From Candidatus Micrarchaeota archaeon (GTDB lineage: Archaea; Micrarchaeota; Micrarchaeia; Burarchaeales; JACRGF01), in NCBI GenBank assembly GCA_016212395.1, contig JACRGF010000007.1, positions 1,910 to 65,909 on the forward strand: a stretch of DNA of 64,000 nt, written 5' to 3'. Positions 12,643-61,305 of the stretch are shown here, piece after piece (within the stretch, counting starts at the first letter, position 1; each line of letters begins with the position of its first letter). The translations under genes were made by a program, and so were the position numbers. Under the pieces are notes generated by a model, which did no database searches, was not told where the DNA came from, and saw nothing but the letters and a program-made list of their open reading frames with translations.

Positions 12643-12894
12643 CACCAAGACGACCCAACCACTCAAAACCATGAAACTACAAAACACATAAACAAAACTC
12701 AAAATCCTAAATCACACACACCCCAAAAACACCAAAACCAAAAACCTCCAACACCCCCCAAACTCAAAACCGGAAACTGAAAACTTCGCCTCCTACCCAC
12801 CCCACTTCCACTAATCAACATAATAATAAAATAAAAATACGGGTAAACTACTCTAAAACTCCTTTAAACAACCAAAAGAAGTATTAATAAATAT

Positions 12895-26474: not shown

Positions 26475-26567
26475 ATTAAGGCGCATTTCAATTCGCTCTC
26501 ATTAAACACACTTTTTTAAACGTTTTCTTCGACGTTATTGCGCTATTCGTTTTTGTTGGTGGTTTTT

Positions 26568-41142: not shown

Positions 41143-42666
41143 ATGACTGCACAGCGTGGGGGAAGCCGAACACCCAGAAGGGAAGCTATTCTTAACGCTC
41201 CAGCTCGAGCAAGCAGAACTGCTCGCGCCAGTGCGGAAAGCGTTGAAACCGCGCGTGCCGGGCAATCTAAAACAACTGCAGCTGGTTCTCGCGCTGCTAA
41301 AAAAGCTGCCAAGCCCAAGCCTGTTTCAGTGAAAACAACTCGAACGCGCTTGAACAAGCAAATCGATTTACTCAAACAATCATTGCAAGAAAAGCAAAAG
41401 CAATTGGAAGGCATCAACAAGAGAATTGTTGAAGCGAAGAAAGGAAAGAAAATTCCTGCGCAACTCTCTCGCGAAAAGACTGCTGCAGACGCTGAAATTC
41501 AAGTTATTCAAGGACAATTGACTGTTGCGCGCGAGCAATTAAATGCTACTTACAAGCGAAAGCCGGCAAAAAGCAGGGAACAAACACAGGCACAGCTGAA
41601 AGCGCAATCGCCTTTAACTGTTGTTGCGGTTGATGGAGACTTGCTTGGAGCTGCGAAAACAGAGGCGAAACTCGAACTGTCGCGTGCGAATGGCGAGTTT
41701 GAACGCGTGTCCAAGGAATTAGAAGACGCGCTAAAGCGCGTGGAGAAAGTGGTTGCTGAACGCAACTCGCTCGCTGAAGCGAAAACAGCTGCTGAACTGC
41801 TCATAACTAAAACTGCTCAAGACCTCGAGGCAGTAAGGAAAGAATTAGACGAGTTGAAAGCACGCAAGCCACTTCAAATCGAGAAAATCGTGTTCGACCA
41901 TAATGAATTAACTGAAGCTCGAGCAAGAATTCGGGAATTGGAAGGAAGATTAGATTCTACTGGAGACAGTGATTCAACGTCTGCGCCTTCAACTTCTTCT
42001 AGAACGTCGAAGAAAGCGAGGATTGAACAGCTTGAAGCGCAGTTGCAAGAGAGGGAACAGCGGTTGGAGCGGGCTGAAAAAACGCTTCAAGAAATTTCAT
42101 TGAAAATGAGCGATTTTCTGAAGGGCTTCCGCGGGGACTCTGACAGTGAAAAAACTGAAGTTGTAAACGTTAGAAAGCAAATCTCCACGCTGTTTGCAAT
42201 AATCAGGAGGCAACGCGAGATTATAGAAACATTAAGGAAACGCGTTGAAACTGTTAATGCTGAATTTGCAGAGCTTAAAGCAAAAACCACTCCTCCAAGC
42301 ATATCTGAAGTTGTTGGCTTGAGAAAGCACGCGGGCAGGATGGAGTGGCTTGCCATCGGGCTGTTTATCGCGCTTGGGGCGAGCAACGTTGGCTGGATGG
42401 CTTACAACAAGTTCTACAAGCCTGCAGCGCAAGAGCAGACTCTTGGCTATAACGATGCGTACAGTGATTCAGCGCCTAGTGGTTTGCGTGCAGAACCTGA
42501 AACAGCTCGTGGGGCAGCATACGAATTGTTTGATACTACTCCTGAAGAAGTGAGGCAGACGTTGGCTAACGCAGGCAAAAAAACGTTCAGCATTGTAGGC
42601 GGCGTGCTTTTGCTGGCTGGTGCAGTGTGGTCGTGGCTTCGTTTCAGGGGCAAGCCTTCTCACTAA
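41143..42666 (+). CDS. Coiled-coil protein with a basic N-tail and two C-terminal TM helices (paralog 3)
   Basis: 507-aa ORF. Tail GGSRTPRREA...ARASRTARASAE...SRAAKKAAKPKP. TM helices WLAIGLFIALGASNVGWMAY and FSIVGGVLLLAGAVWSWL. Confidence 0.6.
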   Translation: MTAQRGGSRTPRREAILNAPARASRTARASAESVETARAGQSKTTAAGSRAAKKAAKPKPVSVKTTRTRLNKQIDLLKQSLQEKQKQLEGINKRIVEAKKGKKIPAQLSREKTAADAEIQVIQGQLTVAREQLNATYKRKPAKSREQTQAQLKAQSPLTVVAVDGDLLGAAKTEAKLELSRANGEFERVSKELEDALKRVEKVVAERNSLAEAKTAAELLITKTAQDLEAVRKELDELKARKPLQIEKIVFDHNELTEARARIRELEGRLDSTGDSDSTSAPSTSSRTSKKARIEQLEAQLQEREQRLERAEKTLQEISLKMSDFLKGFRGDSDSEKTEVVNVRKQISTLFAIIRRQREIIETLRKRVETVNAEFAELKAKTTPPSISEVVGLRKHAGRMEWLAIGLFIALGASNVGWMAYNKFYKPAAQEQTLGYNDAYSDSAPSGLRAEPETARGAAYELFDTTPEEVRQTLANAGKKTFSIVGGVLLLAGAVWSWLRFRGKPSH

Positions 42667-44094: not shown

Positions 44095-45123
44095 ATGCTT
44101 GAAATTGACGGCAGTACGAGTGAGGGTGGAGGGCAGATTCTTCGCGTTGCTTTAGCGCTTGCAAGCGTTTTGAAAACTCCTTTGAAAATTTCAAGCATTC
44201 GCGCGAACAGGAGGAATCCGGGCTTGCAGGCTCAGCATTTGGCTGGCGTGAGAATACTGCAGAAAATATGCAACGCGAAAGTTGAAGGCGCTGAACTGCA
44301 TTCCACTCAATTGTCTTTCGAACCGAACAACATTGCAGGCGGAGTTTATTCTTTTGATGTCGGCACTGCCGGAGCGGTTTCGCTCGTGTTGCAAGCAGTT
44401 CTCCCAGTGCTCGCGTTCGCCCCCCGGAAAACCAGCATCACTCTAACTGGCGGTACGCACGTGAACTGGTCTCCTACTATTGATTATATTGAGAACGTGT
44501 TCAAGCCTCTTGTTGCGAGAACTGGTTTCGATTTTGACTTAAGCGTTGAAAAATACGGTTTTTACCCTAAGGGTGGCGGGAGGGTTGTCGTTGAAGCAAC
44601 TCCAGCGCGAGAGTTGAATGGAATAACTTTGGTGGGCAAGGGCGAGTTGTTGGGAGTAAATGGAATTTCTGTTGCTGGAAGCCTGCCTGAGCACGTTGCA
44701 AAACGCCAACGCGAGGGCGTTTCAAGCGTTTTTTCTTCTGCTGAAGTTCGGTTGGTTAACGCTGAAACTGCTTGCCCTGGAACTGCTGTTACGTTGTGGG
44801 CTGAGTTTGAGAATGGCTTGCTTGGCGCGAGCGCGTTGGGAGAGAAAGGAAAGCCTGCAGAGCAAGTTGGCAGGGAAGCTGGAGAGTTGCTGAAGAAAGA
44901 GTTAAGCTCGAGTGCGTGTGTTGATGTGCATGCTGCTGACCAGTTGATGGTGTTCGCTGCATTAGCAAAAGGCGACACTGTTTACAGAACGTCTGAAGTT
45001 TCAAGCCATGCTAAGACTAACGCGTGGCTTATAGAGAAAATTTGCGGAAGCAAAATCGTTTTAAACGAAGGCGAAAAAACAATTTCTATTAAAGGACTTG
45101 GAATTGAAGGGTTGGAAAAATGA
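44095..45123 (+). CDS. rtcA: RNA 3'-terminal phosphate cyclase
   Basis: Sequence MLEIDGSTSEGGGQILRVALALAS...IRANRRNPGLQAQHL. Confidence 0.9.
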   Translation: MLEIDGSTSEGGGQILRVALALASVLKTPLKISSIRANRRNPGLQAQHLAGVRILQKICNAKVEGAELHSTQLSFEPNNIAGGVYSFDVGTAGAVSLVLQAVLPVLAFAPRKTSITLTGGTHVNWSPTIDYIENVFKPLVARTGFDFDLSVEKYGFYPKGGGRVVVEATPARELNGITLVGKGELLGVNGISVAGSLPEHVAKRQREGVSSVFSSAEVRLVNAETACPGTAVTLWAEFENGLLGASALGEKGKPAEQVGREAGELLKKELSSSACVDVHAADQLMVFAALAKGDTVYRTSEVSSHAKTNAWLIEKICGSKIVLNEGEKTISIKGLGIEGLEK

Positions 45124-45761
45124 AGTTTCTCTTGCTTGATTTGCCTGGCTTGATTTCAACTGTAGTAATAGGCGGGCTTATTTACTATTTCGGCGGTTTG
45201 TTTGCATTGCAGTTTCTCGCGTTGATGATAGTTTTCCTCTTGGCTGGAGTTTTTGTTACGAAGTATGATTATGAGCGGAAGCGCGAGCTGGCGGTGTTCG
45301 AGCATGAGCGGAGTTGGGAGAATGTTTTGGCGAACGGAATTGTTCCTGCATTGTGCGTTGTGGCGTTTGCTTTCGACGCGAGGTTTTTCGGCGCGTTCAT
45401 CGGAGCTGTTGCGGCAATAATGGCTGACAAGTTCGGCTCTGAGCTTGGAGTGCTTGGAGGCGAGCCGTTTTCTTTGCTGAACTTGAAGAAAGTAAAGCCT
45501 GGAATTTCCGGTGCAGTCAGCTTGCTGGGCTTGTTCGTTTCGTTCGACGGCGCAGCGTTCATTGGCTTTGCTTCCTACTTTTTATTCCCAAGCCACTTTA
45601 CTCTAGTCCACGTCTTGATTATCGCGTTAGTTGGTTTTGCAGGCTCGATTGCAGACAGCTTGGCTGGAGTTCCTGAAAGCAAAGGAATAGGCAGCAAGAG
45701 CACGACGAACATTATCTGCGCGTTGGCTGGAGCTGCAATAGGTTATTTCGTCATTCAATAG
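45120..45761 (+). CDS. DUF92/TMEM19-family integral membrane protein
   Basis: 213-aa polytopic ORF whose start overlaps the rtcA stop (ATGA). Confidence 0.6.
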   Translation: MKFLLLDLPGLISTVVIGGLIYYFGGLFALQFLALMIVFLLAGVFVTKYDYERKRELAVFEHERSWENVLANGIVPALCVVAFAFDARFFGAFIGAVAAIMADKFGSELGVLGGEPFSLLNLKKVKPGISGAVSLLGLFVSFDGAAFIGFASYFLFPSHFTLVHVLIIALVGFAGSIADSLAGVPESKGIGSKSTTNIICALAGAAIGYFVIQ

Positions 45762-45957: not shown

Positions 45958-46677
45958 TTATCTTGTTCTTGCTGCAGTTTTTCTTGCAACGTGCCTGGCG
46001 TATTCTTTCAATCCTGTTTCAGCGTCTGCTGTAAACAAGCCTTCAACTGTTTGCACTATCTCTTTTCGTATCTGCACGTCTCCCACTTTTATTTTGTTTA
46101 ACGCGAGAAGGCACGCTGCTCTTACTGTCCCGCGCGAGTCCCTGCGCATTGTTTTGATAAGTGCTGCGACCGCGTTTTCATTCCCGTATTTCACGAGGCA
46201 CAAGGCAGCGTCAACGCGCAACCCGCTGTTCGTGTGCGCGACAAGCACGTTGCCTGCAAGCTCGCTTATTCTCGCGCGCAGGCTTTTTCTTTTCACTTTC
46301 AAGTAAACGAGTGTTTCAAAAACTCTTTTCAGCACGTTCACGTTCTCGCTTTTTTCAAGCACGCTGGCGAGCACTGGAACAGCTTTTCCGCCGAACGAAA
46401 CAAGGCAGTCTATCGCGTCTATCTGCTCGCGAGGCTTTTCTCCTCTAATTGCTGTTCGCGTGAGCCTCACAAAATGCCTTTTCTGAGCAACGCCTGCTTC
46501 CCTTGCTTCAGCGAATACTCTCGTTGCGTCAATAACCGTTTTTCCATTCAGCAAAAGCCTGGGGGGAATAACGCGCCCATTAGGCCTTCTGCCTCCTGCC
46601 TCCAGTGCAGCAGCACGTTCGCTCAACGAAACAAGTTTCCCCACAACAACTCCCCCACTCTTAAGATACGCCTGCAA
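45958..46677 (-). CDS. HEAT-repeat protein
   Basis: Repeated helical units (NAVAALIKTMRRDSRGTVRAACLLALNKI and others). It overlaps the upstream 574-aa gene by 17 nt. Confidence 0.6.
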   Translation of the reverse strand: MQAYLKSGGVVVGKLVSLSERAAALEAGGRRPNGRVIPPRLLLNGKTVIDATRVFAEAREAGVAQKRHFVRLTRTAIRGEKPREQIDAIDCLVSFGGKAVPVLASVLEKSENVNVLKRVFETLVYLKVKRKSLRARISELAGNVLVAHTNSGLRVDAALCLVKYGNENAVAALIKTMRRDSRGTVRAACLLALNKIKVGDVQIRKEIVQTVEGLFTADAETGLKEYARHVARKTAARTR

Positions 46678-48385
46678 ACCTGTAAATTTTTATTACTTCC
46701 TCGAAACCCAAGCCCGTCAAAGCTTTCCGCGCTATTTCATCAGTAACCACGTTTTCCTTCTTGTGTCCCCTCAACATTTCGCCTGCGTTTCTTCCACTCA
46801 TCTGTGCCAATAGTTTCAGCACTGGTTCAGCGTGTTGCTCGTAAATAACATCCACCAAACTTGCGTTGAACATTAAGGCAGCCATTTCAACGTCTTGCAT
46901 TACATCCACCCACGAGTCGTATTTCGCGTAGTTTGCAGCGATTTCTGCTTCAACCCTGCGCGTTTCTTCCCTCAACTTGGCTTTGTCCGTTCTTTCAAAT
47001 GTTTTCATGCCTGCAAGCGTTTTCTTGTAATACACTATTCTTGGAACTGCGGAAATCCTCTCGTATCCTGCTTCGAACGCTTTTCGCGCCAATCCGTTCG
47101 GAAGCTCGTACATCCTGTCTATTGTCCCGTCTTCAAGCGCGCGCACTATTTCCACGCTCATCTCTCTGCAAACTTTTTCTTTTTCAGGCTCTGGTGAAGT
47201 TGCAATATCTTCGCCAATAATTCCGGCTTTCTTCATTCTTTCGATATTCTCTTTTTGCATGTCTGCCATTTTCCTGAACCCAAGCATTTCCCCAATGTGC
47301 GTGAGCACTTCTACTTGCAGTGTATGCCTATTGACTCTTTTGAACCCTGAGTAATGCCGTCTCTTCAAGTAGCCGTGCACGAGCCTGCGCATAAGCCCGT
47401 TGAGCACGCACAATTCCAAGTCAAGCTCGCGCATTGTTTTCATTTTCAAGCCTTCCGCGTTCGCTTCTGTCGCTATTCCGCGCGAGAGCACTCCCTCCTC
47501 GTGTTCTTCCCCCTTGCATTTCCGCACTTCCACTTTCACTACTCTTGCTGCAGCGTGCAGTTCATGAACTTCTTGAATAAAATGCTGGGCAACTAATCTG
47601 ATTTCAGGCCGAATAGTAAAACTTGCTCTGTCTTCCCCTCTTTCGTTTCCTCCGCTTTCCCCTCCTTCTTTTTTTCCTTCTCCGAGCACGTCCCAGATTG
47701 CGCGCATTACTCCCTGCCTGATTGCAACGTAGAGTTTGTAGCTTTCTTCAAACTTTTGTGAAGAAGCGAGTTGAAGCAATCCGGGCGCTATTCCCGAAAG
47801 CGCGTCGAATACTTTCTTGAATTCTCTCGGAGCAAGCGTTACTCCGCCAAGCCATCCTCGCAGTATGTGTTCACCGCTTACTATAGGGTTGCCTGCGCGT
47901 GCTTGTTGCGCTGTGAGCGTTTCGTGCACGAACAATGCAGTTAGTTCTAGCGGTTTTTCTTCGATTTGGTTTACGTTTCTTTGCGTTACGATTAGTTTGA
48001 CGTTTTCCCTGCGCACTGCTTCAGGCCACAACAGCGTGCTTTGAGGCGCTGCAATTCCACCTAACAACTCGTTCTTGAATGCTGTAGTAGTTGAACCGTC
48101 TGGGCATTGCACGAACAATTCCGCGAGCGCGTGCCTGTACCTTCCGCTTTGCTTTAGCACTGCGTCAACGTCTTCTAGCGTTATTGCCGTGCCTCCGCCT
48201 CGCAGTGCTTGTTTTACGAACAATACGCTGTCGCCTTCCTGCACGTCGCGCGCGAGCTTTCCGAAAAACTCTCCTCCTAATGGAACTATCACGCGCGTGT
48301 TCGGGTGGAAAACAGAAGTTCCTAGCGTAGTAGTTACGAAAATCTTGCGGGCATCTGGCTTTTGCTGCCTCCCCACGTGCGACAT
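46661..48385 (-). CDS. Large hypothetical protein (574 aa)
   Basis: Long uninterrupted ORF with the TATA box tttaaata about 28 nt upstream of the ATG (leaderless). I recognise no motif. Confidence 0.55.
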   Translation of the reverse strand: MSHVGRQQKPDARKIFVTTTLGTSVFHPNTRVIVPLGGEFFGKLARDVQEGDSVLFVKQALRGGGTAITLEDVDAVLKQSGRYRHALAELFVQCPDGSTTTAFKNELLGGIAAPQSTLLWPEAVRRENVKLIVTQRNVNQIEEKPLELTALFVHETLTAQQARAGNPIVSGEHILRGWLGGVTLAPREFKKVFDALSGIAPGLLQLASSQKFEESYKLYVAIRQGVMRAIWDVLGEGKKEGGESGGNERGEDRASFTIRPEIRLVAQHFIQEVHELHAAARVVKVEVRKCKGEEHEEGVLSRGIATEANAEGLKMKTMRELDLELCVLNGLMRRLVHGYLKRRHYSGFKRVNRHTLQVEVLTHIGEMLGFRKMADMQKENIERMKKAGIIGEDIATSPEPEKEKVCREMSVEIVRALEDGTIDRMYELPNGLARKAFEAGYERISAVPRIVYYKKTLAGMKTFERTDKAKLREETRRVEAEIAANYAKYDSWVDVMQDVEMAALMFNASLVDVIYEQHAEPVLKLLAQMSGRNAGEMLRGHKKENVVTDEIARKALTGLGFEEVIKIYRFAGVS

Positions 48386-48417: not shown

Positions 48418-48479
48418 CCATGGCGAAATAGCGTTTTTGCTTTGTTTTTTCGCGCGTTCTGTTGAGTTTGGCTTTAAAA

Positions 48480-48974
48480 ATGTTTTCGTCGAATAAGTTG
48501 TTTCAGGTGGCCTGCCTGCAACAATTGCAATCTGTTCGCGAGGTTGATCCCTCGTTCATGCCGTTCGACGAGATAGAGCGGAGGCTGCGCGCTGATTTTG
48601 ACAAATTGTCTAAGCAGAAGAACACTCGGCAAGTGGAGCATGCTGACAAGCTGTTGATGTGCGAGCTTGCGATAGACCATTTGAATGCTTACAAGGAAAG
48701 CGCTGAAGAACTCGAACGCCTAGTTGCGTGTTACAAGCGCGCGAGCGCTTCCTCTAAACAACACAGTGCTACTCTCAAGAGGAGAGTTGCTGCGTACAAG
48801 CGTGCTCTCTCGTTGCTGAACATTGCTTTGAATGTCCACTTCTCGCGCAGGCAAAAATTGCGCGCGCAAAAGAAAAGAATTCGGCTCCAGCTTTCCGCTT
48901 GCTCTGAGTCCATCGCGCAATTCAAGAACGCAGTCAGAGGCATCTCGTTCTCGCTGAAAAAAAGAAAAGACTGA
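48480..48974 (+). CDS. Hypothetical helical/coiled-coil protein
   Basis: About 164-aa ORF starting at the ATG at 48480, basic and helical. No motif recognised. Confidence 0.4.
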   Translation: MFSSNKLFQVACLQQLQSVREVDPSFMPFDEIERRLRADFDKLSKQKNTRQVEHADKLLMCELAIDHLNAYKESAEELERLVACYKRASASSKQHSATLKRRVAAYKRALSLLNIALNVHFSRRQKLRAQKKRIRLQLSACSESIAQFKNAVRGISFSLKKRKD

Positions 48975-49018: not shown

Positions 49019-49167
49019 CGGGCCCGACGGGAGTTTCAGGGTTTAGAAGTTTTGATGTTTTGCAGTTTCGCTTGTTTTGAAAATTCTGCCTGAACTTCTA
49101 AACTCTTTCGAACCCGCGACTTCTTGGTCCGAAGCCAAGCGCTCTATCCAAGCTGAGCTACGGGCCC
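49019..49167 (-). tRNA. tRNA-Arg (anticodon UCG) with a 74-nt intron (49033-49106) between positions 59 and 60
   Basis: Minus-strand read: GGGCCCG TA GCTC AGCTTGGATA GAGC G CTTGG CTTCGGA CCAAG AAGTC GCGGG TTCGAA [intron] T CCCGT CGGGCCC G. The acceptor stem is a perfect 7 bp. The intron ends pair as GTTTAGAAGTT/AACTTCTAAAC (11 bp). Confidence 0.75.
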
Positions 49168-49264
49168 GCAAGATTTGTCTTGAATGGTTTTGTCTGGTTG
49201 GTTTTGACTGGTTCTGTCTTATTTTGCTGTTTTCGTTCTTTTCGAGAAGTATTTTGTGCTGAAC

Positions 49265-49276
49265 TTATATAAATAC
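49265..49276 (+). promoter_or_regulatory. TATA box for the small pilin-like gene
   Basis: ttatataaatac, centred about 25 nt upstream of the ATG at 49296. Confidence 0.5.
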
Positions 49277-49295
49277 TGGGAAGTATAACCTGCTC

Positions 49296-49490
49296 ATGTC
49301 GTTTTGGGAGTTTGCTGGAAAGAACAGCGGGAAAGGATTGATCGTCGGCGGTGTTGCTGTCGGAGTTGCTACTGCAGCGCCTGTGCTTGGAAACCAGATT
49401 GCTTCAGCGTTGCCGCCTGGCGCTGGGTTGGCTGCAGGAGTCGGCATGATCGCGGTAGGCACTGGGCTGGAATTAATAGGCGGCCTTTAA
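49296..49490 (+). CDS. Small Gly/Ala-rich two-helix membrane protein (candidate VirB2/CedA1/TedC-like pilin)
   Basis: 64-aa ORF MSFWEFAGKNSGKG|LIVGGVAVGVATAAPVLG-NQIASALPPG-AGLAAGVGMIAVGTGLELIGGL. It has a strong TATA box and sits first in the VirB4 module. Confidence 0.5.
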   Translation: MSFWEFAGKNSGKGLIVGGVAVGVATAAPVLGNQIASALPPGAGLAAGVGMIAVGTGLELIGGL

Positions 49491-49500
49491 CCTGCCATTA

Positions 49501-49552
49501 ACGCGCAAAAAAATAAAACGCAACATCAACAGCATCTTTTTTTTCTGCGCGT
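49501..49552 (+). terminator. Hairpin plus T8 tract immediately after the pilin-like gene
   Basis: acgcgcaaaaaaa (49501-49513) pairs with ttttttctgcgcgt (49539-49552). A run of 8 T residues lies at 49537-49544. Confidence 0.4.
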
Positions 49553-49773
49553 GTTTTTTCTCGTTCAGTTTTGTGTGTTGTCCTGTTTTTTTCTTTTTTT
49601 CTCTACACTTTTTTTCTGTTTTGTTCTTTTTGTCGTTTTTTTTTCTGCGCGTGTTTTTTCTGTTTTGTTCGTTTTTTTTAGGGTTTTTTCTTTTTTTCTG
49701 TTTGTTTCTCTTTTTTCCTGCGTTCAGCAAGTTTTTTATACGGTTGAACGCTTATTCTTTCGGGAGGTTGTTC

Positions 49774-50652
49774 GTGGCTTACAAGACGCCTAAGGAAATC
49801 GAGCAGTACCGGCAGAAATTCTTGTTTGGAAAGACGCAGTCCGAGGCAGCGATTTTCTTGGGCGCGTTCACCGCAGGCTTTATCACAGCTTACGCTTACT
49901 CTTTTTCTTTTGCTTCAGTCCTTGCAGGCGCAGGCATTGCTTTGTTCGGCTATTTGTGGGTGTTTCATGATTTCGGAAAGCGTTTGCTTGACTTGCATGC
50001 TTACCAGTCGAGCGTGAAGAAAGCGAATTTTACTGACTTGAGTTCAGCGAAATTTCTCGGGGTTAAGGACGTGCGCGACGACGCTATTTTTTTGAACGAC
50101 AATTCGCTTGTTTCGCTCATTCAAGTAATCCCGCTGGATTTTGATGTTCTCGAGCCTGAGAGAAAGCAGGCTATAATCGCGAATTATAAAAAGTTTCTCG
50201 ACGGGTTGGATTATCCGATTGAGATTGTGTGCAGGACTGTGGACTTGAATTTAGAGGAGTATTTCAAGGCGCACAGGCGTTCTACTGAAGCGTTGAACAA
50301 TCCTGCTTTGTTGAAGCGTTTCGAGAAGCTTGAAAAATTCCTGCGCGGGTACATTAAGGAGAACGAGGTGAAGGACCGTGTTTTCATTGTTGCGTTGAGC
50401 GAGCGGATGCGCCCGCTTTCGAGTGCTGCGAAGTTCGACAAGCGCATAGAACAGGAAGTGTTCGCAGAGGCGCGAAAGTCTTTGGACGTGAAGACCGAGA
50501 CTACGTTGAACGCGTTGAAGCAGTGCATGCTTCAGTGCAGGCGCTTGAAGTCAAGCGAGCTTGTCGCGATGCTCTCTTCGATTTTCACTGGAAGCGTGAA
50601 CGTGAGTGAAGATTACTTGTTTCCGATAACTGACTGCAACGGAGAAAAATGA
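49774..50652 (+). CDS. PrgI/VirB3-like two-TM protein fused to a VirB4 N-domain-like region
   Basis: GTG start with GGAGG 7 nt upstream. The sequence AYKTPKEIEQYRQKFLFGKTQSEAAIFLGAFTAGFI... fits the PrgI-family N-terminal pattern. Then LGVKDVRDDAIFLNDNSLVSLIQVIPLDFDVLEPERKQAIIANYKKFLDGLDYPIEIV follows. Confidence 0.6.
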   Translation: MAYKTPKEIEQYRQKFLFGKTQSEAAIFLGAFTAGFITAYAYSFSFASVLAGAGIALFGYLWVFHDFGKRLLDLHAYQSSVKKANFTDLSSAKFLGVKDVRDDAIFLNDNSLVSLIQVIPLDFDVLEPERKQAIIANYKKFLDGLDYPIEIVCRTVDLNLEEYFKAHRRSTEALNNPALLKRFEKLEKFLRGYIKENEVKDRVFIVALSERMRPLSSAAKFDKRIEQEVFAEARKSLDVKTETTLNALKQCMLQCRRLKSSELVAMLSSIFTGSVNVSEDYLFPITDCNGEK

Positions 50653-50795
50653 AGGCAGAGAAAAAACGTAAAACGCGTTGTTCACGCGTGAATTGTTTTG
50701 GAGTTTTGTGGTTTTGTAGTGTCGTGGTTTTTTGTGTGAATTCGAAACTTCGAAACTGCAAAACTCGAAACTTGCAATTGTTTTGGCTGGTGTTC

Positions 50796-53519
50796 ATGGT
50801 GGGAAGCGTTCAGGTCAGCGACACGTTTGTTCAGACGGGCGATTTGCTTAACCGCCAGCTTGGCATAGTTGGCGTCTCGCGCGAGTTGAAGCGCAATGCT
50901 TTCCCTAACTTGTTCGAGTCTGCTTCAAGCATTGACTTCAAGTTGAGCGTGTCTCCTTCAAATGCTGACAGCGAGTTAAGCGAATTGTCGCAGATTGCAA
51001 AGCTTGATGCCGACGATTCGAGGCAGTCTGCTGCTGTGCGCACTCTGCAAAAGCTTCAGGCAGGAGAGCGGGTTTTCGAAGTGTCAGCTTACTTGAACGT
51101 GAAGCGAAGAAAGTCTGGCGACGCGAACTGTGATGTTGAAGAGCTTGACAAGACGTTTGCTGCAGTACACAATACTGTTGCAGAGAACGGCATGGTGTGC
51201 AAGCCTTTGTTTGCCACTGGCTTGAACGGTTTTTTGTGCACGCTTCCATTCTTTTCCAACAAAGTCCAATGCAGCAGGAAATTCACTTCCTCTGCCGCTG
51301 CCTCTGCTTTTCCATTCATAAAATCTCGCAACGGAACATCGCGCGAGGCGTTTGAGGCGCTGCAAGGCATTCAAAAATTGTCTCCTCGGAAAAAAGAGGA
51401 AAAGCCGGACTTGAAAATTTTGCAGGCTCAAGTTGCAGCGCACAGGCAGGCGATAGACGCGCTTGCGAATTCTGGAACGCTTGCAAGCAGCGTTTCGAAA
51501 CTGCTTTCTTTTTTTTCATTCAGCAAGCAAGGTGGCAGGCAGCAGGCGAAGCAAAGCGCGAGCCTGCTTCACACCCTCATCACTCCTTCTTTCATTGACA
51601 ATAAGCCGGGTGAAATTCGGATTGACGAGTACCACGAGAAAATGCTTGTTGCTGCTGATTATCCTGACTCGATGGAGGAAGGATGGCTGACTGACTTGGT
51701 GAAGCTGAACAAGAAATTCGATTTTGCAATGCACGTTTCACCGCACGACGCGGCAGTGATTGAAACAATGCTTACGTTCAAGCTCGCTAAAATGAAGGCA
51801 GAGGAAATTTCAGCGCGCAGGCACCTTGTTTCCCAGCTTGGGCAAATGGGCCAGACGCTTGACACTCCTGACCTTATTCGCTTGAAAGCGCAAATCTCTG
51901 ATTTGGAGGCGACGCTTGCAAACATTCGCAGCGGGAAAAACAAAGTGTACGATTTTGGCTTGTATTTCGTCGTGAAAGACACGCGCGCGAGGGAGCTTCA
52001 GCTCAACAACGAGACTATTCGAAGAAAACTAAATTCCATTAAAATTCGGCCTGCGCAGCTTGCGCACAGGCTCGAGCAGGGAATAAAAACAATGCTTCCA
52101 TTCTGTTCAGACAAGCTGAAGAGCGTGTTCAAGCTTCCGACTGACAATGTTGCAGCGTGCTTTCCGTTCACTTCCTCCTTCCTCGTGCTCGACAGCGACG
52201 ACTCCGTCCTGCTCGGGTTCAACAAGGACACGCGCGCCCCAATCATTCTCGACTTGTTCGGGGAGCGGATGCATAACTTCAACAGTGTTATTGTCGCGAA
52301 AAGCGGGAGCGGAAAATCCACTTTCACGAAGCTCCTCATCTCGCGCCTCGTGCTGCGCGGAGCGCGCGTTTACGTTATCGACCCTACGAGAATGCCTGGC
52401 TTTGATTTTTCGGAGTATGCGCCAGTATGCCTTGCGTCTGGAGGCGAAGTGATTGGCTTGTCTCCTGACAGCGAGTGTTCGCTCAACTTGTTTGACTTGA
52501 TGGGTTTTGACTTGGATTCAAAGCTTCAAAGCCTTGAAATAGTTTTCTCCAAACTGCTCGGGCAAATGACTGACGATCAAATGCGCGTTCTAAGAAAGGC
52601 ATTGCGCCTCGCGTACGCGAACAAGAAAATAACTCACGATGACGCAACCACGCTGGCGCGCGAGCCGCCTAAATTCTCTGACTTGTACGACTCAGCAAAG
52701 CAAATAGCTTTTTCAGCATCAAAGCGAAAGAAGCCGTCGAAGCGATCTGCATTCGTCGATGTCGTGCCGCAGGACAAGGCGCCTGCAGAGTGGCTTCAAA
52801 GCAGCCTTGAAGAATACGTGTTCGGCTCCCGCCGCTACCTAAACAAGCACTCAAACATCAACGTGCAAAGCCCGTTCATCGTCTTCGACGTTTCAGGCCT
52901 GCCTGAAAACCCCGGGCAAAGCGATTCAGGAGTGCGCGCTGCCTACATGTACGCAATTCTTTCATTCGTGAACAAGCTCATGATGGAAGAGGAAAAAATG
53001 GGCTTGAAGAAAACGCGCAAGCTCCTGGTAGTGGATGAGGCTTGGAGAATGCTTGCAAGCGAGGCTGAAAGCAAGTACTTGTTCAACTTTGCGCGCGTGT
53101 GCAGAAAATACCATTTGTCGCTCGTGCTCATCACACAGTCGCTTCTCGACATGCAGGACGCGCGCGTTCGCAACGCAATTGTCCAGAATACCGACTGGAA
53201 GCTGTTCCTGCGCCAGGACACTACTGCGATAGACGCGACTGCCGACATGGTAAAGCTCACGCAAGAAGAAAAAAACATTCTCACCACTTCAGATAAAGGG
53301 GAAGGAATCCTGCTGCTTGGAGGAGAGCACATTCCGTTCAAAAGCGTTTTCTCGCAAGAGGAAAAAGCGCTCGTTACAACAGCTCCGAAAGACCTTATCG
53401 CGTTCGAACAGAGCCTGAAAACCCTGGCGAACAGCAAGTCGCGGAAGAAGCAGTCAAAGAAAGAAGCGTTGGACGAACTCCGCAAGCTACAGAAAAAACT
53501 GGCAGGTGAACGAACGTGA
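50796..53519 (+). CDS. VirB4/TraC/TrbE-like type IV secretion ATPase
   Basis: Walker A VIVAKSGSGKSTF and Walker B KLLVVDEAWRML, plus LVLITQSL. A VirB4 mid-domain pattern IRIDEYHEKMLVAADYPDSMEEGWLTDL is present. An alternative start at 50649 overlaps the upstream stop (ATGA) but reads through a repeat element. Confidence 0.85.
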   Translation: MVGSVQVSDTFVQTGDLLNRQLGIVGVSRELKRNAFPNLFESASSIDFKLSVSPSNADSELSELSQIAKLDADDSRQSAAVRTLQKLQAGERVFEVSAYLNVKRRKSGDANCDVEELDKTFAAVHNTVAENGMVCKPLFATGLNGFLCTLPFFSNKVQCSRKFTSSAAASAFPFIKSRNGTSREAFEALQGIQKLSPRKKEEKPDLKILQAQVAAHRQAIDALANSGTLASSVSKLLSFFSFSKQGGRQQAKQSASLLHTLITPSFIDNKPGEIRIDEYHEKMLVAADYPDSMEEGWLTDLVKLNKKFDFAMHVSPHDAAVIETMLTFKLAKMKAEEISARRHLVSQLGQMGQTLDTPDLIRLKAQISDLEATLANIRSGKNKVYDFGLYFVVKDTRARELQLNNETIRRKLNSIKIRPAQLAHRLEQGIKTMLPFCSDKLKSVFKLPTDNVAACFPFTSSFLVLDSDDSVLLGFNKDTRAPIILDLFGERMHNFNSVIVAKSGSGKSTFTKLLISRLVLRGARVYVIDPTRMPGFDFSEYAPVCLASGGEVIGLSPDSECSLNLFDLMGFDLDSKLQSLEIVFSKLLGQMTDDQMRVLRKALRLAYANKKITHDDATTLAREPPKFSDLYDSAKQIAFSASKRKKPSKRSAFVDVVPQDKAPAEWLQSSLEEYVFGSRRYLNKHSNINVQSPFIVFDVSGLPENPGQSDSGVRAAYMYAILSFVNKLMMEEEKMGLKKTRKLLVVDEAWRMLASEAESKYLFNFARVCRKYHLSLVLITQSLLDMQDARVRNAIVQNTDWKLFLRQDTTAIDATADMVKLTQEEKNILTTSDKGEGILLLGGEHIPFKSVFSQEEKALVTTAPKDLIAFEQSLKTLANSKSRKKQSKKEALDELRKLQKKLAGERT

Positions 53520-55408
53520 ACAACAAAAAAAACAAGCTGCTTGAAAGCATCGAGCTTGAAATGCATAAGGCAAGTGAAGCACAGCGCGCTCAGGAAGAAC
53601 TTCAAGCGAAAAAAGAAGCTGAAGGCAACTCTTCAGAACAATCTCCTCCCTCCACTGGTTTTATTTCTTCCCTGCTCGCTCGCATTCCCTCGTTCGGAAA
53701 CTGGAACGGAGGCGAAGCAATTCAGACAGAAGAAGCGCGCACTTCACATCCCCCAGAACTTTCTTCCCAAGCTAAAAATGATTTTAAAAAAACCCAGAAG
53801 AAAATAGCGCGTCTCGAGAATTCCCTCGCGCGCGAAACCGTCTGCCAAGCCAAGCTCGCTGTTGAGCAGAAGGAAGCTGAACGCCAAGTCCTTGAACTCC
53901 AATCCTCCTTAAAGTCAGCTCGCGATGTAAGCGCGCGTGCGTATGAAGAGCTTCACAGCAAGCAGGCAGAAGCAGACTCATTTATTTCACAGCTTGAATT
54001 TGAGGTGAACAACCCTCAGCTTTCAACTGCGCGCGCGGAGTTCGAAGAAAAAAAACGCGAGCTTTCAGAGCTCGCGAAACAGCTTGTGCAGGCTAAAAGC
54101 AAGGACAAGCAGTCAAAAGCCTTGCTTGCTTCAACTCAAGGCAGAATTTCCGAAAAGAAAAAAAGCATTTCAACTCTAGAACAGTCTATTTCCTCCAGTG
54201 GCGAAAAAGTCGCGTTGCTTGGCAAAACGATTTACGACTTGGAGGAAACGTTGCGCAATGGAAGGGAACAAGTGCAAGCACTCGAGCAAAAACTTTCTGA
54301 AAAACAGCAAGCAATTCAAGCGCTTCAGCATTCCAAGCTTGAACTTGAAAAAAACTTTTCAGAAGCAAGCGTTCTCCTCGCGCAATCTGAAGCTGATGAA
54401 GCTTCTCTTCAAACGCAAGCGCGCCGGCTTCGAAGCAGGCTTGCTTCGAGGAAAAGAAAGCTTTCAGCCTGCCAGCAGTCGCTTCAATCAATAACCGAAC
54501 AGCTTTCTTCCATGGAACAGCGCGTTCCTTCAACTGAACGCGTTTTGAGCGAGTTGTTGCGCCAGCTTCACGAGTTCGAGCAGAAAACTTCTGAAAAACA
54601 GGCTGTGCTCTCCCATCTTGAAGAAAACAAAAAAACGTTAAGCGAGCAAGTGAAAGAAAAGCGCAAAGCTTCGCAATCTGCGGCAAATCGCGTTGAAGAG
54701 CTCGAGAACGAAACTGCCAGCCTCACCCGCTCTATAAAGCGGTTCGATGAAAAAGAAAAGCATTTGAAGGCGAAAGCAGAATCTCTTTTGCAACAGCAAA
54801 AGTCTTTAGGGCAACTCGCTGTTGAAGCAGAGAAAAAATCTGCACACGCTGAACGCTCGCTTGAACCGCTTGCTGTTGAAGCGGAGAAAAAATCACTTCA
54901 ACAAGAACGAGAAGAGTTGGCAGATCTTCCAACGAAACCAAAATCAATTCCTCAAGGCGCGCAGCAGCTCGAGCAGTTGACTCAAAATATTTCTTCAGAT
55001 TCTTTCACGCGAGAGTTCATCAACTCCTGCCAGTTCGGCGAGCGTTTTACTGAAAAACACTCTGCTTCCTTGCACTCTCGCGGATTCAAGAAAACAAGCT
55101 CTTCAAACCCTCTCGTTCGCCTGCTTCTCTCCAAACTCGTAGGGCAACACGAGAATCTTTCATTTTTCATGAAGCCGAGCAGGAAATCTTCTTCGGTTGA
55201 AAAAGAGTTTGCCGTGTGGCTTTCAGTAATGCTTTTGGGGAAAAAACACGGGGCAGTAAAGATTCACGAGCGCGGGCCTCACGACGTTACTTTCAGCGAA
55301 GGAAAGCTTGCAATCAATCTTTCAAAACAAGAAAACACTGTCGTGCTGGCTGATTCCAATTCTGAAAAACTGCTTTCAAGGGAAGAACTTGACCAGTTGT
55401 TCGACTAG
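53516..55408 (+). CDS. Long coiled-coil protein (about 450 aa) with a C-terminal globular domain, translationally coupled to the VirB4-like gene
   Basis: GTG start overlapping the VirB4 stop (GTGA). Contains an internal duplication LAVEAEKKS...LAVEAEKKS. Confidence 0.6.
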   Translation: MNNKKNKLLESIELEMHKASEAQRAQEELQAKKEAEGNSSEQSPPSTGFISSLLARIPSFGNWNGGEAIQTEEARTSHPPELSSQAKNDFKKTQKKIARLENSLARETVCQAKLAVEQKEAERQVLELQSSLKSARDVSARAYEELHSKQAEADSFISQLEFEVNNPQLSTARAEFEEKKRELSELAKQLVQAKSKDKQSKALLASTQGRISEKKKSISTLEQSISSSGEKVALLGKTIYDLEETLRNGREQVQALEQKLSEKQQAIQALQHSKLELEKNFSEASVLLAQSEADEASLQTQARRLRSRLASRKRKLSACQQSLQSITEQLSSMEQRVPSTERVLSELLRQLHEFEQKTSEKQAVLSHLEENKKTLSEQVKEKRKASQSAANRVEELENETASLTRSIKRFDEKEKHLKAKAESLLQQQKSLGQLAVEAEKKSAHAERSLEPLAVEAEKKSLQQEREELADLPTKPKSIPQGAQQLEQLTQNISSDSFTREFINSCQFGERFTEKHSASLHSRGFKKTSSSNPLVRLLLSKLVGQHENLSFFMKPSRKSSSVEKEFAVWLSVMLLGKKHGAVKIHERGPHDVTFSEGKLAINLSKQENTVVLADSNSEKLLSREELDQLFD

Positions 55409-59701: not shown

Positions 59702-59931
59702 TCTCGCTTCCGGATGCATAAATAAAAACAACGCTTCCAGCATTTAATTAGTTTTGTTCTAGGGTTTACGTTTCGTCTAGGGGGTTGTGAAGTCTTGTAG
59801 TTTAGGGGTTTTGGAGTTTCGAGCTTTGCAGTTGTTTTTGCCTATACAGTTGTTTCTTGAGTTTGATTCGTTTTGCAGTTGTTTTGTTCTTTGTGTGGGG
59901 TTTTTATTCCAGTTTTTGCATAACTTTTTTC

Positions 59932-61305
59932 ATGAGTCAAGCACAGCAGTCTTCTGCACCCACTCGTGCTCAAGCGCATTCAGCTCCGCGCCTTCCAATG
60001 CCTTTAAAGCATGAAGGCCTCGCTGGTTTCAGAAGATGGCGTGACTTGTTTTTCATTAACGCTGGATTGTTCAAAATAACTGATAAATGTTTCAAGAGTT
60101 TGCTGCCTGAATTTGCGAGGCAGGCTGCAGTTGCTCCCGGAGAGCTTGCGGAAATGGTTTGCGACAGGAGAAAAGAAGACGTTATAACCCTCACACTTCC
60201 CACAGTAGGCTCTACTGCAAAATCTTTAGTGCACGCAAAAGCTCTGGAGAAAATTTCTGATGGCACAATAGGCGAGTGGTACGATGCAGGCTTTATTCAA
60301 CCTGTTGTAAAATGGAAGCGCGTTGACCGCGGTGCAATAACTCGAAAATTCGTCGAATGCCTTGGAAAGCAAGTTACTGCAGTTTCAAGTGACGATCTTC
60401 GATTGAATGGCTTAGGAACAATGCTGCCTTACTGCCCGCACCCTCTTGGTTTGAAGCACTCTCATTTTTTTGCTTTAGTTGAAGCCGGCTTGGCTCACTC
60501 AATTAAAGCAACGCTTGAGCACGCTTCTTCAGGCGAATTCGACGCGAGCAAGCCTTATTTTTTCCAAATGAACGACGTGCCTAAAATTTACCACGTGAAA
60601 GCATGCAGGGTTGCTGCAGTAAAGTGGCTGTTGAACGAACTGAAGAACTCAACTCCTTCAAAAAATGCTACTGAACTTTCCCAGGACGACTTTCATGAAC
60701 GCGGCTGGGCTGGGTTGGTGAAGCACTATGCCTGCAACTTGTTTGAAGCGCTCGTTGAAGCTCAGCGAGGCTGGCCTTTGGACGAAACGCTCGAGCACTC
60801 TGCTGCAGGAAAATTTTCAGATGAAAAGCTTTACTTTTGGCAGATGAAGCGCTCTTCCCGGCTTTACAGCGAGCAAAAGTACAGGATTGCAGTAACTCGC
60901 TGGGTCGTGTCAAAAACCGGGAAGCTTGAAAACGTGATTGTAGACAGTTTTCAAAATTTGGGTGTAGCAGGACTGCTCGTGCATACTCAACACTCGCTTT
61001 ATCTTGCTTTGGTTGAAGCCGGTTTTGCCCATTCTTTAGAGGAAACTCTCGACCACGCTCGCACTGGAAAATTCGACGGCTCGAAAGTTTACCCTTGGCA
61101 AATGGCGCGCGTTCCAACCTCCTTTGATTACTCCAATGGAGAACACCGCGCTGCTGCTTACACGTGGCTGGCATGGAAGGCAAGCAAACCAGTTGACGCC
61201 ATAACAAAACAAGACTTTTTAGATCATGGTCTAGCTGGCTTATATGCTCACAAGGGCTTTGAAACCACGTGCATCGACGATTTCAGGAGTTTGGCTGCAA
61301 CTTGA
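59932..61305 (+). CDS. Hypothetical protein with three ~100-aa internal repeats
   Basis: The repeats share G(L/V)AGL..H......AL(V)EAG.AHS..(E/A)TL(E/D)HA..G(K/E)FD.SK.Y.(F/W)QM. The start was set at MSQAQQSS. Confidence 0.5.
   Translation: MSQAQQSSAPTRAQAHSAPRLPMPLKHEGLAGFRRWRDLFFINAGLFKITDKCFKSLLPEFARQAAVAPGELAEMVCDRRKEDVITLTLPTVGSTAKSLVHAKALEKISDGTIGEWYDAGFIQPVVKWKRVDRGAITRKFVECLGKQVTAVSSDDLRLNGLGTMLPYCPHPLGLKHSHFFALVEAGLAHSIKATLEHASSGEFDASKPYFFQMNDVPKIYHVKACRVAAVKWLLNELKNSTPSKNATELSQDDFHERGWAGLVKHYACNLFEALVEAQRGWPLDETLEHSAAGKFSDEKLYFWQMKRSSRLYSEQKYRIAVTRWVVSKTGKLENVIVDSFQNLGVAGLLVHTQHSLYLALVEAGFAHSLEETLDHARTGKFDGSKVYPWQMARVPTSFDYSNGEHRAAAYTWLAWKASKPVDAITKQDFLDHGLAGLYAHKGFETTCIDDFRSLAAT

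Follow-up and report, generated by a model that had tools for sequence, protein, structure and literature searches.

VirB3 anchors VirB4 in type IV secretion systems (T4SSs), and VirB4 powers T4SS assembly and pilus biogenesis. In the TrsC-TrsD-TrsE (TraC-TraD-TraE) cores of pGO1 and pSK41, which are of mating-pair formation (MPF) type FATA, a two-transmembrane (two-TM) PrgI/VirB3-like protein, TrsD and a short VirB4 are encoded in this order, and the order PrgI/TrsC, TrsD, VirB4 is likewise found on an S. aureus pSK41-like plasmid and on a Pontibacillus megaplasmid. The chromosomal T4SSs of Patescibacteria (Candidate Phyla Radiation, CPR) comprise VirB4, TrsD, PrgI, VirB6 and pilins, carry no relaxase and are essential for epibiotic growth (PMC12102498; PMC10633639). 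In archaea, the Ced systems of Sulfolobales and the Ted systems of Thermoproteales are chromosomal, domesticated, relaxase-less T4SS derivatives with a VirB4-like ATPase (PMC9905601), and Nanohaloarchaeota, members of the DPANN archaea, carry chromosomal VirB4/TraG-like ATPases that are linked to giant SPEARE-type surface proteins and have been proposed to serve host interaction (PMC10266531). Here we analyze a locus in a 64,000-nt stretch (the window) of a Candidatus Micrarchaeota (DPANN) chromosome (GCA_016212395.1, contig JACRGF010000007.1). It consists of a gene for a fused PrgI/VirB3- and TrsD-like protein (ORF2), a virB4 gene and a gene for a long coiled-coil protein, and it is preceded by a gene for a 64-amino acid (aa) protein and by a tRNA-Arg gene.

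Sequence comparison identifies the TrsC-TrsD-TrsE plasmid cores and the relaxase-less Patescibacteria T4SSs as the closest organisational relatives of this locus. We consider it probable that the three genes form a chromosomally fixed, relaxase-less and reduced MPF-FATA-type T4SS derivative that powers translocation or assembly at the cell envelope, and that the 64-aa gene and the tRNA-Arg gene are its neighbours, not its components. This reading starts from what is directly observed, namely homology, domain architecture, intact ATPase motifs, gene order and purifying selection. The literature that we searched, with incomplete coverage, treats Patescibacteria T4SSs, crenarchaeal Ced/Ted systems, conjugative plasmids of Sulfolobus, Thermococcus and haloarchaea, and SPEARE VirB4-like domains; in it we found no PrgI::TrsD-VirB4 module described for Micrarchaeota.

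The anchor, the ATPase and the coiled-coil protein

The middle gene encodes a genuine VirB4 ATPase of the MPF-FATA type that is found in monoderms and archaea. NCBIfam models for CD1110-family VirB4 (5.1e-72), VirB4 of Mbov_0397-type integrative and conjugative elements (ICEs; 4.5e-67), TraC-F (3.7e-40) and VirB4_CagE (5.3e-26) match the protein, as do Pfam P-loop_TraG (1.7e-19) and AAA_10 (1.6e-14), and its sole sequence match in the PDB is the VirB4 C-terminal domain 4AG5 (2.8e-23). Models of other families fall far behind (DUF87/HerA 1.4e-7, TraG-D_C 0.011, FtsK 0.15), so that the assignment to VirB4 and not to HerA or FtsK made in an earlier reading of the sequence alone (the sequence-only reading) is borne out. 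The Walker A and B motifs noted in that reading are both located in the gene and intact, and they are invariant in a four-sequence alignment that includes a 29% relative. Because its scores fall under the equivalog cutoffs, the protein is to be regarded as a divergent member of the family.

For comparison we used the loci of GCA_053535415.1 (L001, 71% identical), of an 87% relative (L003) and of a second Micrarchaeota lineage (L005), together with the metagenome contig L095. The virB4 frame is open from 50649, but neither L001 nor L003 shares the extension at 50649-50798, and conservation and annotation both place the start at the GTG at 50799. The VirB4 core spans residues 248-880. With a hidden Markov model (HMM) built from 78 CPR VirB4 proteins, model positions 44-226 match residues 4-176 (1.4e-9) and positions 26-398 match residues 248-636. 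The protein measures 906 aa against ~610 in relatives because its first subdomain is tandemly duplicated. This duplication is common to the window, L001 and L003 and absent from the VirB4 proteins of L005, CPR bacteria, Firmicutes and haloarchaea, which indicates a lineage-specific feature.

A scan of GTDB species genomes with the window VirB4 returned almost only Patescibacteria, at ~29% identity, and one other Micrarchaeota; VirB4 proteins of plasmids, haloarchaeal ones included, are more distant (20-29% identity). CPR proteins are thus the most numerous close matches, yet the window VirB4 is placed outside their clade. In a neighbour-joining tree (91 sequences, 603 columns, 100 bootstraps), the CPR proteins together with that of locus L002 were monophyletic in 90 of 100 replicates with the Micrarchaeota sequences outside, and the deeper nodes were without resolution. 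The CPR HMM scored the Pontibacillus protein at 546 bits, that of Embleya at 475 bits and the Micrarchaeota proteins at ~343-356 bits. On this ranking and the tree we rejected a window VirB4 acquired specifically from Patescibacteria by horizontal gene transfer, which the GTDB matches had suggested. The protein can safely be described as a divergent VirB4 lineage among the MPF-FATA systems that are associated with TrsD.

ORF2 encodes a PrgI/VirB3-like two-TM part followed by a TrsD/VirB4-N-terminal-like domain, the composition that had been proposed from its N-terminus in the sequence-only reading and on which NCBIfam matches, synteny and an alignment with L095 agree. Pfam PrgI matches residues 6-59 (E = 0.011) and NCBIfam TrsD/TraD matches the protein at 1.9e-4. 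Positions 84-280 of the NCBIfam VirB4_plasma (Mbov_0397) model match ORF2 (1.9e-7), while positions 282-892 match the ATPase; the VirB4 N-terminal domain is split between the two proteins, with its TrsD part in ORF2. Residues 1-286 of ORF2 align end to end (1e-36) with a 293-aa fusion protein of L095, whose N-terminus passes Pfam PrgI (30.7 bits against a cutoff of 27) and whose C-terminal part matches TraC_F_IV. The identity of ORF2 as PrgI plus TrsD is therefore confirmed by transitive homology. TraC_F_IV is also matched by 8 of 29 ORF2 homologues, and in 79 fetched loci homologues of ORF2 found with phmmer lie directly upstream of virB4, in the order PrgI, TrsD, VirB4. The N-terminus of ORF2 on its own gave a marginal hhalign match to CPR PrgI (P = 5e-4, probability 30%) and reached no PrgI proteins with jackhmmer, and a metagenome scan with the ORF2 alignment returned no match. 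The ORF2 frame is open from 49573, the stretch before the GTG being an F-rich translation of a T-rich spacer.

The split of VirB3 and VirB4-N from the ATPase had been taken for part of a different accessory set; it instead follows the known TrsC/PrgI-TrsD-TrsE layout, and the PrgI::TrsD fusion is itself found elsewhere, namely in L005, on L095 and on a bacterial plasmid. The latter, plasmid NZ_CP108778 of Embleya sp. NBC_00896, encodes an ORF2-like fusion of 349 aa annotated as "PrgI family protein" (TrsD part 6e-9, Pfam PrgI 1.3e-17) with a short VirB4 downstream. Unlike the window, it carries a type IV coupling protein (T4CP) gene and a gene for a replication-relaxation protein after virB4, a genuine conjugative set.

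The third gene starts with a GTG that overlaps the stop codon of virB4 (GTGA), just as previously described. Its 630-aa product comprises an N-terminal region with a conserved SLLARIPSFG motif, an alpha-helical coiled coil (~400 aa) and a globular C-terminal domain (~135 aa). No TM segment was found and no signal peptide is evident in the N-terminal sequence. For the C-terminal domain, a word-index homology search returned no homologues, and a single-sequence AlphaFold2 (AF2) model with a predicted local distance difference test score (pLDDT) of 48 had a best Foldseek match at E = 1.1 and none at E<1. A likeness of this domain to the C-terminal extension of the L005 VirB4, or to a PD-(D/E)xK nuclease, was considered and given up. 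The gene is found downstream of virB4 in L003 (61%) and L001 (~30%) only, which indicates a protein restricted to the lineage of the window. One might speculate that it acts as a scaffold, a tether or a substrate. Ted loci pair a VirB4-type ATPase with Rad50 (PMC9905601), and Sulfolobus conjugative plasmids carry VirB4/VirD4 homologues with an SMC-like protein; by analogy, such pairings may offer a loose precedent, and only that, for the coiled-coil partner.

Conservation of the module and the components around it

The three genes are kept together in related genomes and are under strong purifying selection. In L003, the 64-aa gene, ORF2, virB4 and the coiled-coil gene follow one another as in the window, with the 64-aa gene likewise 284 nt upstream of ORF2. 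In L001, the order is ORF2, virB4, an extra gene, the coiled-coil gene and then, on the minus strand, FAD-oxidase/CCG and Nre genes, so that L001 and the window share the right flank with FAD oxidase and Nre. All three module genes are intact in each of the three genomes. Between the window and L003, the ratio of nonsynonymous to synonymous substitution rates (dN/dS) is 0.07 for ORF2, 0.08 for virB4 and 0.17 for the coiled-coil gene. Between the window and L001 it is 0.08 for virB4 (at dS 2.8), 0.07 for Nre and 0.13 for FAD oxidase. The dS values of these comparisons range from 0.9 to 2.8. Because synteny is combined with strong purifying selection, the evidence points to ORF2, virB4 and the coiled-coil gene as a fixed chromosomal module and not a decaying mobile element.

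The extra gene of L001 (12850-13119, +), located between virB4 and the coiled-coil gene and present in this 71% relative only, encodes an 89-aa two-TM protein. It has no Pfam pilin match and only a weak PADLOC match to "4TM effector" (1.1e-4). Small two-TM, pilin-like genes occupy the same position after virB4 in CPR loci. The set of L005 (7926-12265) is more complete than that of the window: a 351-aa protein with 6 TM segments precedes the PrgI::TrsD fusion and a 785-aa VirB4, and toxin-antitoxin-like genes follow. The L005 VirB4 has a C-terminal extension of ~155 aa, in which a Pfam scan found nothing informative.

Components of a complete T4SS were sought within the 64 kb of the window, to which all absences given here refer. 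Scanned with Pfam and NCBIfam, the module and 33 other large window ORFs yielded no relaxase, T4CP, VirB6-like protein or integrase among the ORFs of at least 150 aa; since several large ORFs have no Pfam match, the negative result for the relaxase covers known families only. Searches with tblastn using VirB6-like proteins from loci L002, L041 and L087 and the 6-TM neighbour protein of L005 gave no match in the window, and a T4CP query yielded only P-loop noise. The locus shows no att-like repeat of the tRNA end. The scans thus agree with the sequence-only reading that these proteins are missing and that the locus, which has neither relaxase, VirD4, integrase nor att site, is not a standard conjugative plasmid or ICE. 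A VirB6-like channel protein (PrgH/TrbL-like), as expected for MPF-FATA, is not found in the cluster. Judged by sequence, the module has the P-loop domain, N-terminal domain and PrgI anchor of a VirB4 system and the core of a TrsD-type one. Its parts can be recognised as those of a T4SS, and they form an unusual reduced set, with a fused anchor, a duplicated VirB4 subdomain, a coiled-coil partner and no channel or pilin in cis.

Compared to the pGO1/pSK41 cores, the P-loop domain of VirB4 is homologous and ORF2 matches their TrsD/TraD family. In the plasmids PrgI and TrsD are separate proteins and VirB4 measures ~670 aa, whereas in the window the former are fused and VirB4 reaches 906 aa with its duplication. 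The window also differs in lacking a cell-wall hydrolase, VirB6/VirB8, T4CP and relaxase, in its location on an archaeal chromosome and in the coiled-coil gene that follows. The Patescibacteria T4SS, as in Southlakia epibionticum (SEML1_0006-0019; PMC12102498, PMC10633639), shares with the window a relaxase-less, chromosomal PrgI-TrsD-VirB4 core in an ultrasmall, host-dependent organism. In contrast to the window, CPR loci have TrbL/VirB6-like polytopic proteins and arrays of T4SS_pilin-domain proteins beside virB4. In Nanohaloarchaeota the ATPase domain is joined to, or lies next to, a giant adhesin with Ig repeats and a TM segment; the window has no such protein, and no PrgI or TrsD has been described for those systems, whereas the window has PrgI::TrsD.

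The upstream 64-aa gene and the proposed function of the module

The 64-aa gene is a real, conserved gene under selection (dN/dS 0.13 against L003), with an invariant FWEF motif and a C-terminus of GLE(L/I)IGGL; its dS of 0.38 is below the 0.9-1.0 of its neighbours. An exhaustive phmmer search of 1.84e9 representative proteins identified only 2 true relatives, at 91% and 58% identity. Its own TATA box, noted earlier, is present, is kept in L003 and occurs as TTTATATAAT in loci L084 and L085. The ~26-nt spacing between TATA box and ATG suggests a leaderless transcript. A 65-aa antisense ORF (49265-49462, -) fully overlaps the gene and is likely a by-product of its Gly/Ala-rich, GC-rich codons.

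The earlier description of four genes in one tight unit does not apply to this gene. All four ORFs do exist in one orientation with coordinates that agree with GenBank, but 284 nt separate the 64-aa gene from ORF2, a further ~146 nt separate ORF2 from virB4, and the linkage of the 64-aa gene is lost in a relative. The 58% homologue (P0006) lies in GCA_053535415.1 on contig JAIYJG010000006, whereas the VirB4 module of that genome lies on contig JAIYJG010000001, 9 kb inside. Neighbours of P0006 are homologues of the left-hand genes of the window, encoding a 170-aa ORF (48462-48974), a HEAT protein (45958-46677) and a DUF92 protein (45120-45761). Because P0006 stays with these left-hand genes on another contig, a synteny breakpoint is placed between the 64-aa gene and ORF2. 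Oligo-T runs serve as terminators in archaea, and the spacer between the two genes is rich in them; its portion at 49537-49712 is pyrimidine-rich with imperfect 61-nt direct repeats, and TTTTTTTTCTGCGCGTGTTTTTTCT occurs in it twice. The promoter-proximal block of ORF2 is identical in the window and L003, while the T-rich spacer has diverged. A scan for promoters and terminators used bacterial models and is uninformative for an archaeon. The 64-aa gene thus appears to be a separate transcription unit of the left-hand synteny block and not demonstrably a member of the module.

No pilin profile or fold matches the 64-aa protein, which had been proposed as the pilin of the module. Scans of Pfam, NCBIfam, PHROG and PADLOC gave no match; at E<=1, neither TrbC nor T4SS_pilin of Pfam nor any NCBIfam model matched. 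An hhalign comparison with a T4SS_pilin-like alignment of 56 sequences (55 locus ORFs and the Pontibacillus seed) returned a probability of 0.2%. An AF2 model from a 3-sequence alignment, weak evidence at a pLDDT of 55, had 0 Foldseek hits in the PDB. Among 83 VirB4 loci (L001-L083), phmmer found a relative in L003 only. The two-helix hairpin is the sole VirB2-type feature seen in the protein, its helices being Gly/Ala-rich and of glycine-zipper type, not Leu/Ile/Val-rich. A class III signal-peptide site at KG|L, suggested earlier, is not borne out: the putative site reads GKG|LIV in the window and L003 and GVG|LIA in the 58% homologue, a second hydrophobic helix extends as far as the C-terminus, and the sequence shows no evident signal peptide. 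A role of the hairpin as ATP-synthase c/K-subunit was also considered and rejected, ATP-synt_C not matching at E<=1 and the conserved Glu lying 5 residues from the C-terminus.

In the reading that we favour, the PrgI/VirB3-like hairpin of ORF2 would sit in the cytoplasmic membrane and anchor the TrsD domain, which, being the first part of a VirB4 N-terminal domain and separated from the rest, would complete VirB4 and dock the ATPase. VirB4 would assemble at the membrane as the usual hexameric motor, and the 630-aa coiled-coil protein would serve this motor as scaffold or adaptor, or be its substrate. The assembly would energise the translocation of macromolecules or the assembly of a surface structure at the envelope, and a membrane channel, if needed, would be encoded elsewhere or have diverged beyond recognition. 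By analogy with the essential Patescibacteria T4SS, the module plausibly serves the host-dependent lifestyle of a DPANN archaeon. Several observations weigh against this proposal. The ATPase stays below the NCBIfam equivalog cutoff (243 against 325 bits). No VirB6/CedA-like polytopic protein, pilin or coupling protein is found in the window, and VirB4 is not known to function in their absence; the module may therefore be incomplete or re-purposed. Matches of the coiled-coil protein are compositional only (SMC_prok_B at 2.7e-19 and a helix-rich protein at 8e-9, in addition to Rad50, JetC, LmuB and tape-measure proteins). The family is also rare, the word-index search having given 4 proteins and the Joint Genome Institute (JGI) metagenomes having added one short contig with the VirB4 alignment; a scan of viral contigs gave no match.

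Re-purposing of the VirB4-like ATPase and an SMC-like partner for intracellular tasks such as DNA handling or partition, or for defence against mobile genetic elements, instead of secretion, would be in keeping with the match of the ATPase to the defence model mad8 (4.9e-17) and weakly to DndH, with the coiled-coil matches to SMC, JetC, LmuB and Rad50 models and with the Rad50/SMC-like partners of VirB4-type ATPases in Ted loci and Sulfolobus plasmids. We regard it as unlikely, since VirB4 models score ~4x above mad8 (243 against 60 bits), the PrgI/VirB3::TrsD anchor, specific to inner-membrane complexes of T4SSs, is retained under selection, and Pfam and NCBIfam scans of the coiled-coil protein detect no ATPase head or nuclease domain. 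Quite unlikely, in our estimate, is a DPANN-specific host-interaction machine, corresponding in archaea to the essential T4SS of Patescibacteria, of which the trio would be the motor, with the coiled coil as a stalk or tether replacing VirB6, VirB8 and pilus, or as substrate, and with one or more Gly-zipper proteins as the pore. If the module were what is left of a conjugative element or plasmid that had inserted near the tRNA gene and now decays without function, its position beside that gene and the lack of VirB6, T4CP, relaxase and pilin in the window would be expected, and the rarity of the family and the related PrgI::TrsD-VirB4 cores on conjugative plasmids with T4CP and relaxase would also suit it. 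What makes such a remnant very unlikely is that the genes are intact in three genomes and evolve at dN/dS 0.07-0.17 (dS ~1-2.8), like the neighbouring Nre and FAD-oxidase genes. In addition, the 71% relative has the same right-hand junction with the chromosome, GC content is flat across the window (0.42-0.52) with no anomaly at the module, and the tRNA is absent from the loci of relatives. Integrases usually target the 3' side of tRNA genes, whereas the module lies on the 5' side and no att-like repeat accompanies it.

The sequence-only reading had favoured a minimal Ced/Ted-like machine for DNA import or exchange, in which VirB4 would assemble the 64-aa protein as an unprocessed VirB2/CedA1-type pilin. 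The 64-aa protein is indeed a conserved, selected, hydrophobic two-helix hairpin encoded 284 nt upstream of ORF2 in both the window and L003. CedA1 is also a small unprocessed two-TM hairpin, Ced and Ted pilins have no detectable sequence similarity, and Ted components can lie at distant loci (PMC9905601); negative evidence from sequence and linkage is therefore not decisive. What defines Ced and Ted, however, is a polytopic channel (CedA/TedA) together with a pilin (CedA1/TedC); neither is detectable in the window, and a PrgI or TrsD component has not been described for Ced and Ted, whereas the window has both, fused. The CedB model matches the ATPase at 1.5e-8 with 33.8 bits against a cutoff of 700, and CedD at 5.9e-5 with 21.9 bits against a cutoff of 600; the module has no polytopic neighbour like the 6-7 TM CedA and no 7-TM protein like the VirB6-like TedA, the 64-aa protein matches no NCBIfam model at E<=1, and it does not show the signal peptide that the VirB2-like pilin TedC bears. 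A promoter of its own and the oligo-T-rich stretch ahead of ORF2 set the 64-aa gene apart, its product matches no pilin model or fold, its helices are of glycine-zipper type, its relatives within the 83 VirB4 loci are limited to L003, and in GCA_053535415.1 the homologue lies on another contig while the VirB4 module there carries the different, 89-aa two-TM gene. We hold a Ced/Ted-like machine to be highly improbable. The pilin role itself is just as doubtful and is unsupported rather than excluded, because CedA1 is a small unprocessed hairpin, Ced/Ted pilins are dissimilar to one another and Ted genes are dispersed.

The two great radiations of ultrasmall prokaryotes that depend on hosts are those of DPANN archaea and CPR bacteria, and the module characterized here, as a probable reduced T4SS derivative, is a concrete candidate for the molecular interface of a DPANN archaeon with its host. 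It would add another instance to the domesticated archaeal T4SSs represented by Ced and Ted, and with it the TrsD-type "split VirB4" design is seen in DPANN as well as in Firmicutes, Actinobacteria and CPR. Its value is moderate in that the families are known, the set in the window is incomplete, the lineage distribution is apparently narrow and the function is one that we infer by analogy.

Locus layout and chromosomal surroundings

The region is an ordinary stretch of archaeal chromosome. Housekeeping genes in the window include those for Nre, RtcA, class V fructose bisphosphatase (FBPase), an AMP phosphorylase-like protein, DTD2 and an intein-containing PolB, and further genes encode HerA, NurA, MetAP, NAD kinase and a prepilin peptidase. 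The four plus-strand ORFs of the locus have boundaries identical to those of the Ca. Micrarchaeota GenBank entries MBI5158696-MBI5158699, which are named, in order, hypothetical, hypothetical, DUF87 domain-containing and hypothetical. The features of the locus are listed in Table 1.

Table 1. Coordinates of features at the Micrarchaeota VirB4 locus (window positions).
Feature	Position	Strand	Basis or remarks
tRNA-Arg(TCG), intron-containing	49019-49167	-	Rfam, and ARAGORN after intron excision
TATA box of the 64-aa gene, TTATATAAATA	49265-49275	+	read from sequence; ~26 nt before ATG
64-aa Gly/Ala-rich two-helix membrane protein	49296-49490	+	ORF and conservation
T-rich spacer, 64-aa gene to ORF2	49491-49773	+	284 nt, 54% T, 13 tracts of at least T5
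ORF2 promoter-like block	49723-49759	+	TATA-like TTTTTTATA at 49732-49740
GGGAGG ahead of ORF2	49762-49767	+	read from sequence
ORF2, 292 aa from GTG	49774-50652	+	PrgI/VirB3-like two-TM part and TrsD/VirB4-N-like domain
PrgI/VirB3-like two-TM part, aa ~1-75	49774-49998	+	Pfam PrgI and homology via L095
TrsD/VirB4-N-terminal-like domain, aa ~90-286	50041-50631	+	NCBIfam
ORF2-virB4 spacer, ~146 nt	50653-50798	+	hairpin 50673-50689; 8-nt tandem run
VirB4-family ATPase, 906 aa, GTG start	50799-53519	+	NCBIfam, Pfam, PDB match
Duplicated first subdomain of VirB4, aa 4-176	50808-51326 (vs 51540-52100)	+	CPR HMM
Walker A, AKSGSGKST	52296-52322	+	located in virB4
Walker B, LLVVDEAW	53022-53045	+	located in virB4
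Coiled-coil protein, 630 aa, GTG start	53516-55408	+	ORF; start overlaps virB4 stop (GTGA)

The tRNA-Arg gene that had been noticed beside the module is real and is the left boundary of the module, lying outside it. The Rfam tRNA model (34.3 bits) covers only its 5' part at 49109-49167, and ARAGORN made no call on the intact region; once 72-76 nt of the T-loop region were excised, it called tRNA-Arg(tcg). The intron is non-canonical, measures ~74 nt and lies in the T-loop region, its helix corresponding to the inverted repeat 49038-49051 / 49093-49106. The loci of L001, L003 and L084 contain no tRNA at the Rfam gathering threshold. Just 5' of ORF2 in L001, a weak tRNA-like match (8746-8812, -; Rfam 18.5 bits, E = 0.45) contains an anticodon-like stem-loop CCAGG-TTTGGGA-CCTGG (TGG) and may represent another intron-containing or degenerate tRNA adjoining the module.

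The spacer between ORF2 and virB4 contains a run of 8-nt tandem repeats resembling (T/G)CGAAACT at ~50741-50775. The motif GAAACTGCAAAAC occurs in this spacer (50752-50764, +), in the tRNA intron (49057-49069, -) and at two places elsewhere (12673-12685 and 59808-59820); these 4 matches in the window compare to 0.63 expected, and 4 were reached in 0 of 100 shuffles. The intein-bearing family-B DNA polymerase gene lies at 35109-38801 (-; Pfam Intein_splicing 4.6e-14). Large ORFs of 460-984 aa without a Pfam match are located at 2776-5595 (+), 26538-29492 (+), 38870-40252 (+), 41143-42666 (+), 46661-48385 (-) and 59857-61305 (+). An N-terminal segment of TM or signal type is present in the product of the ORF at 26538-29492, a possible surface protein. 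A gene for a polytopic Peptidase_A24 protein (prepilin/class III signal peptidase) at 1444-2391 (+) makes it probable that filaments of the type IV pilus-like or archaellum-like kind are formed by this organism.

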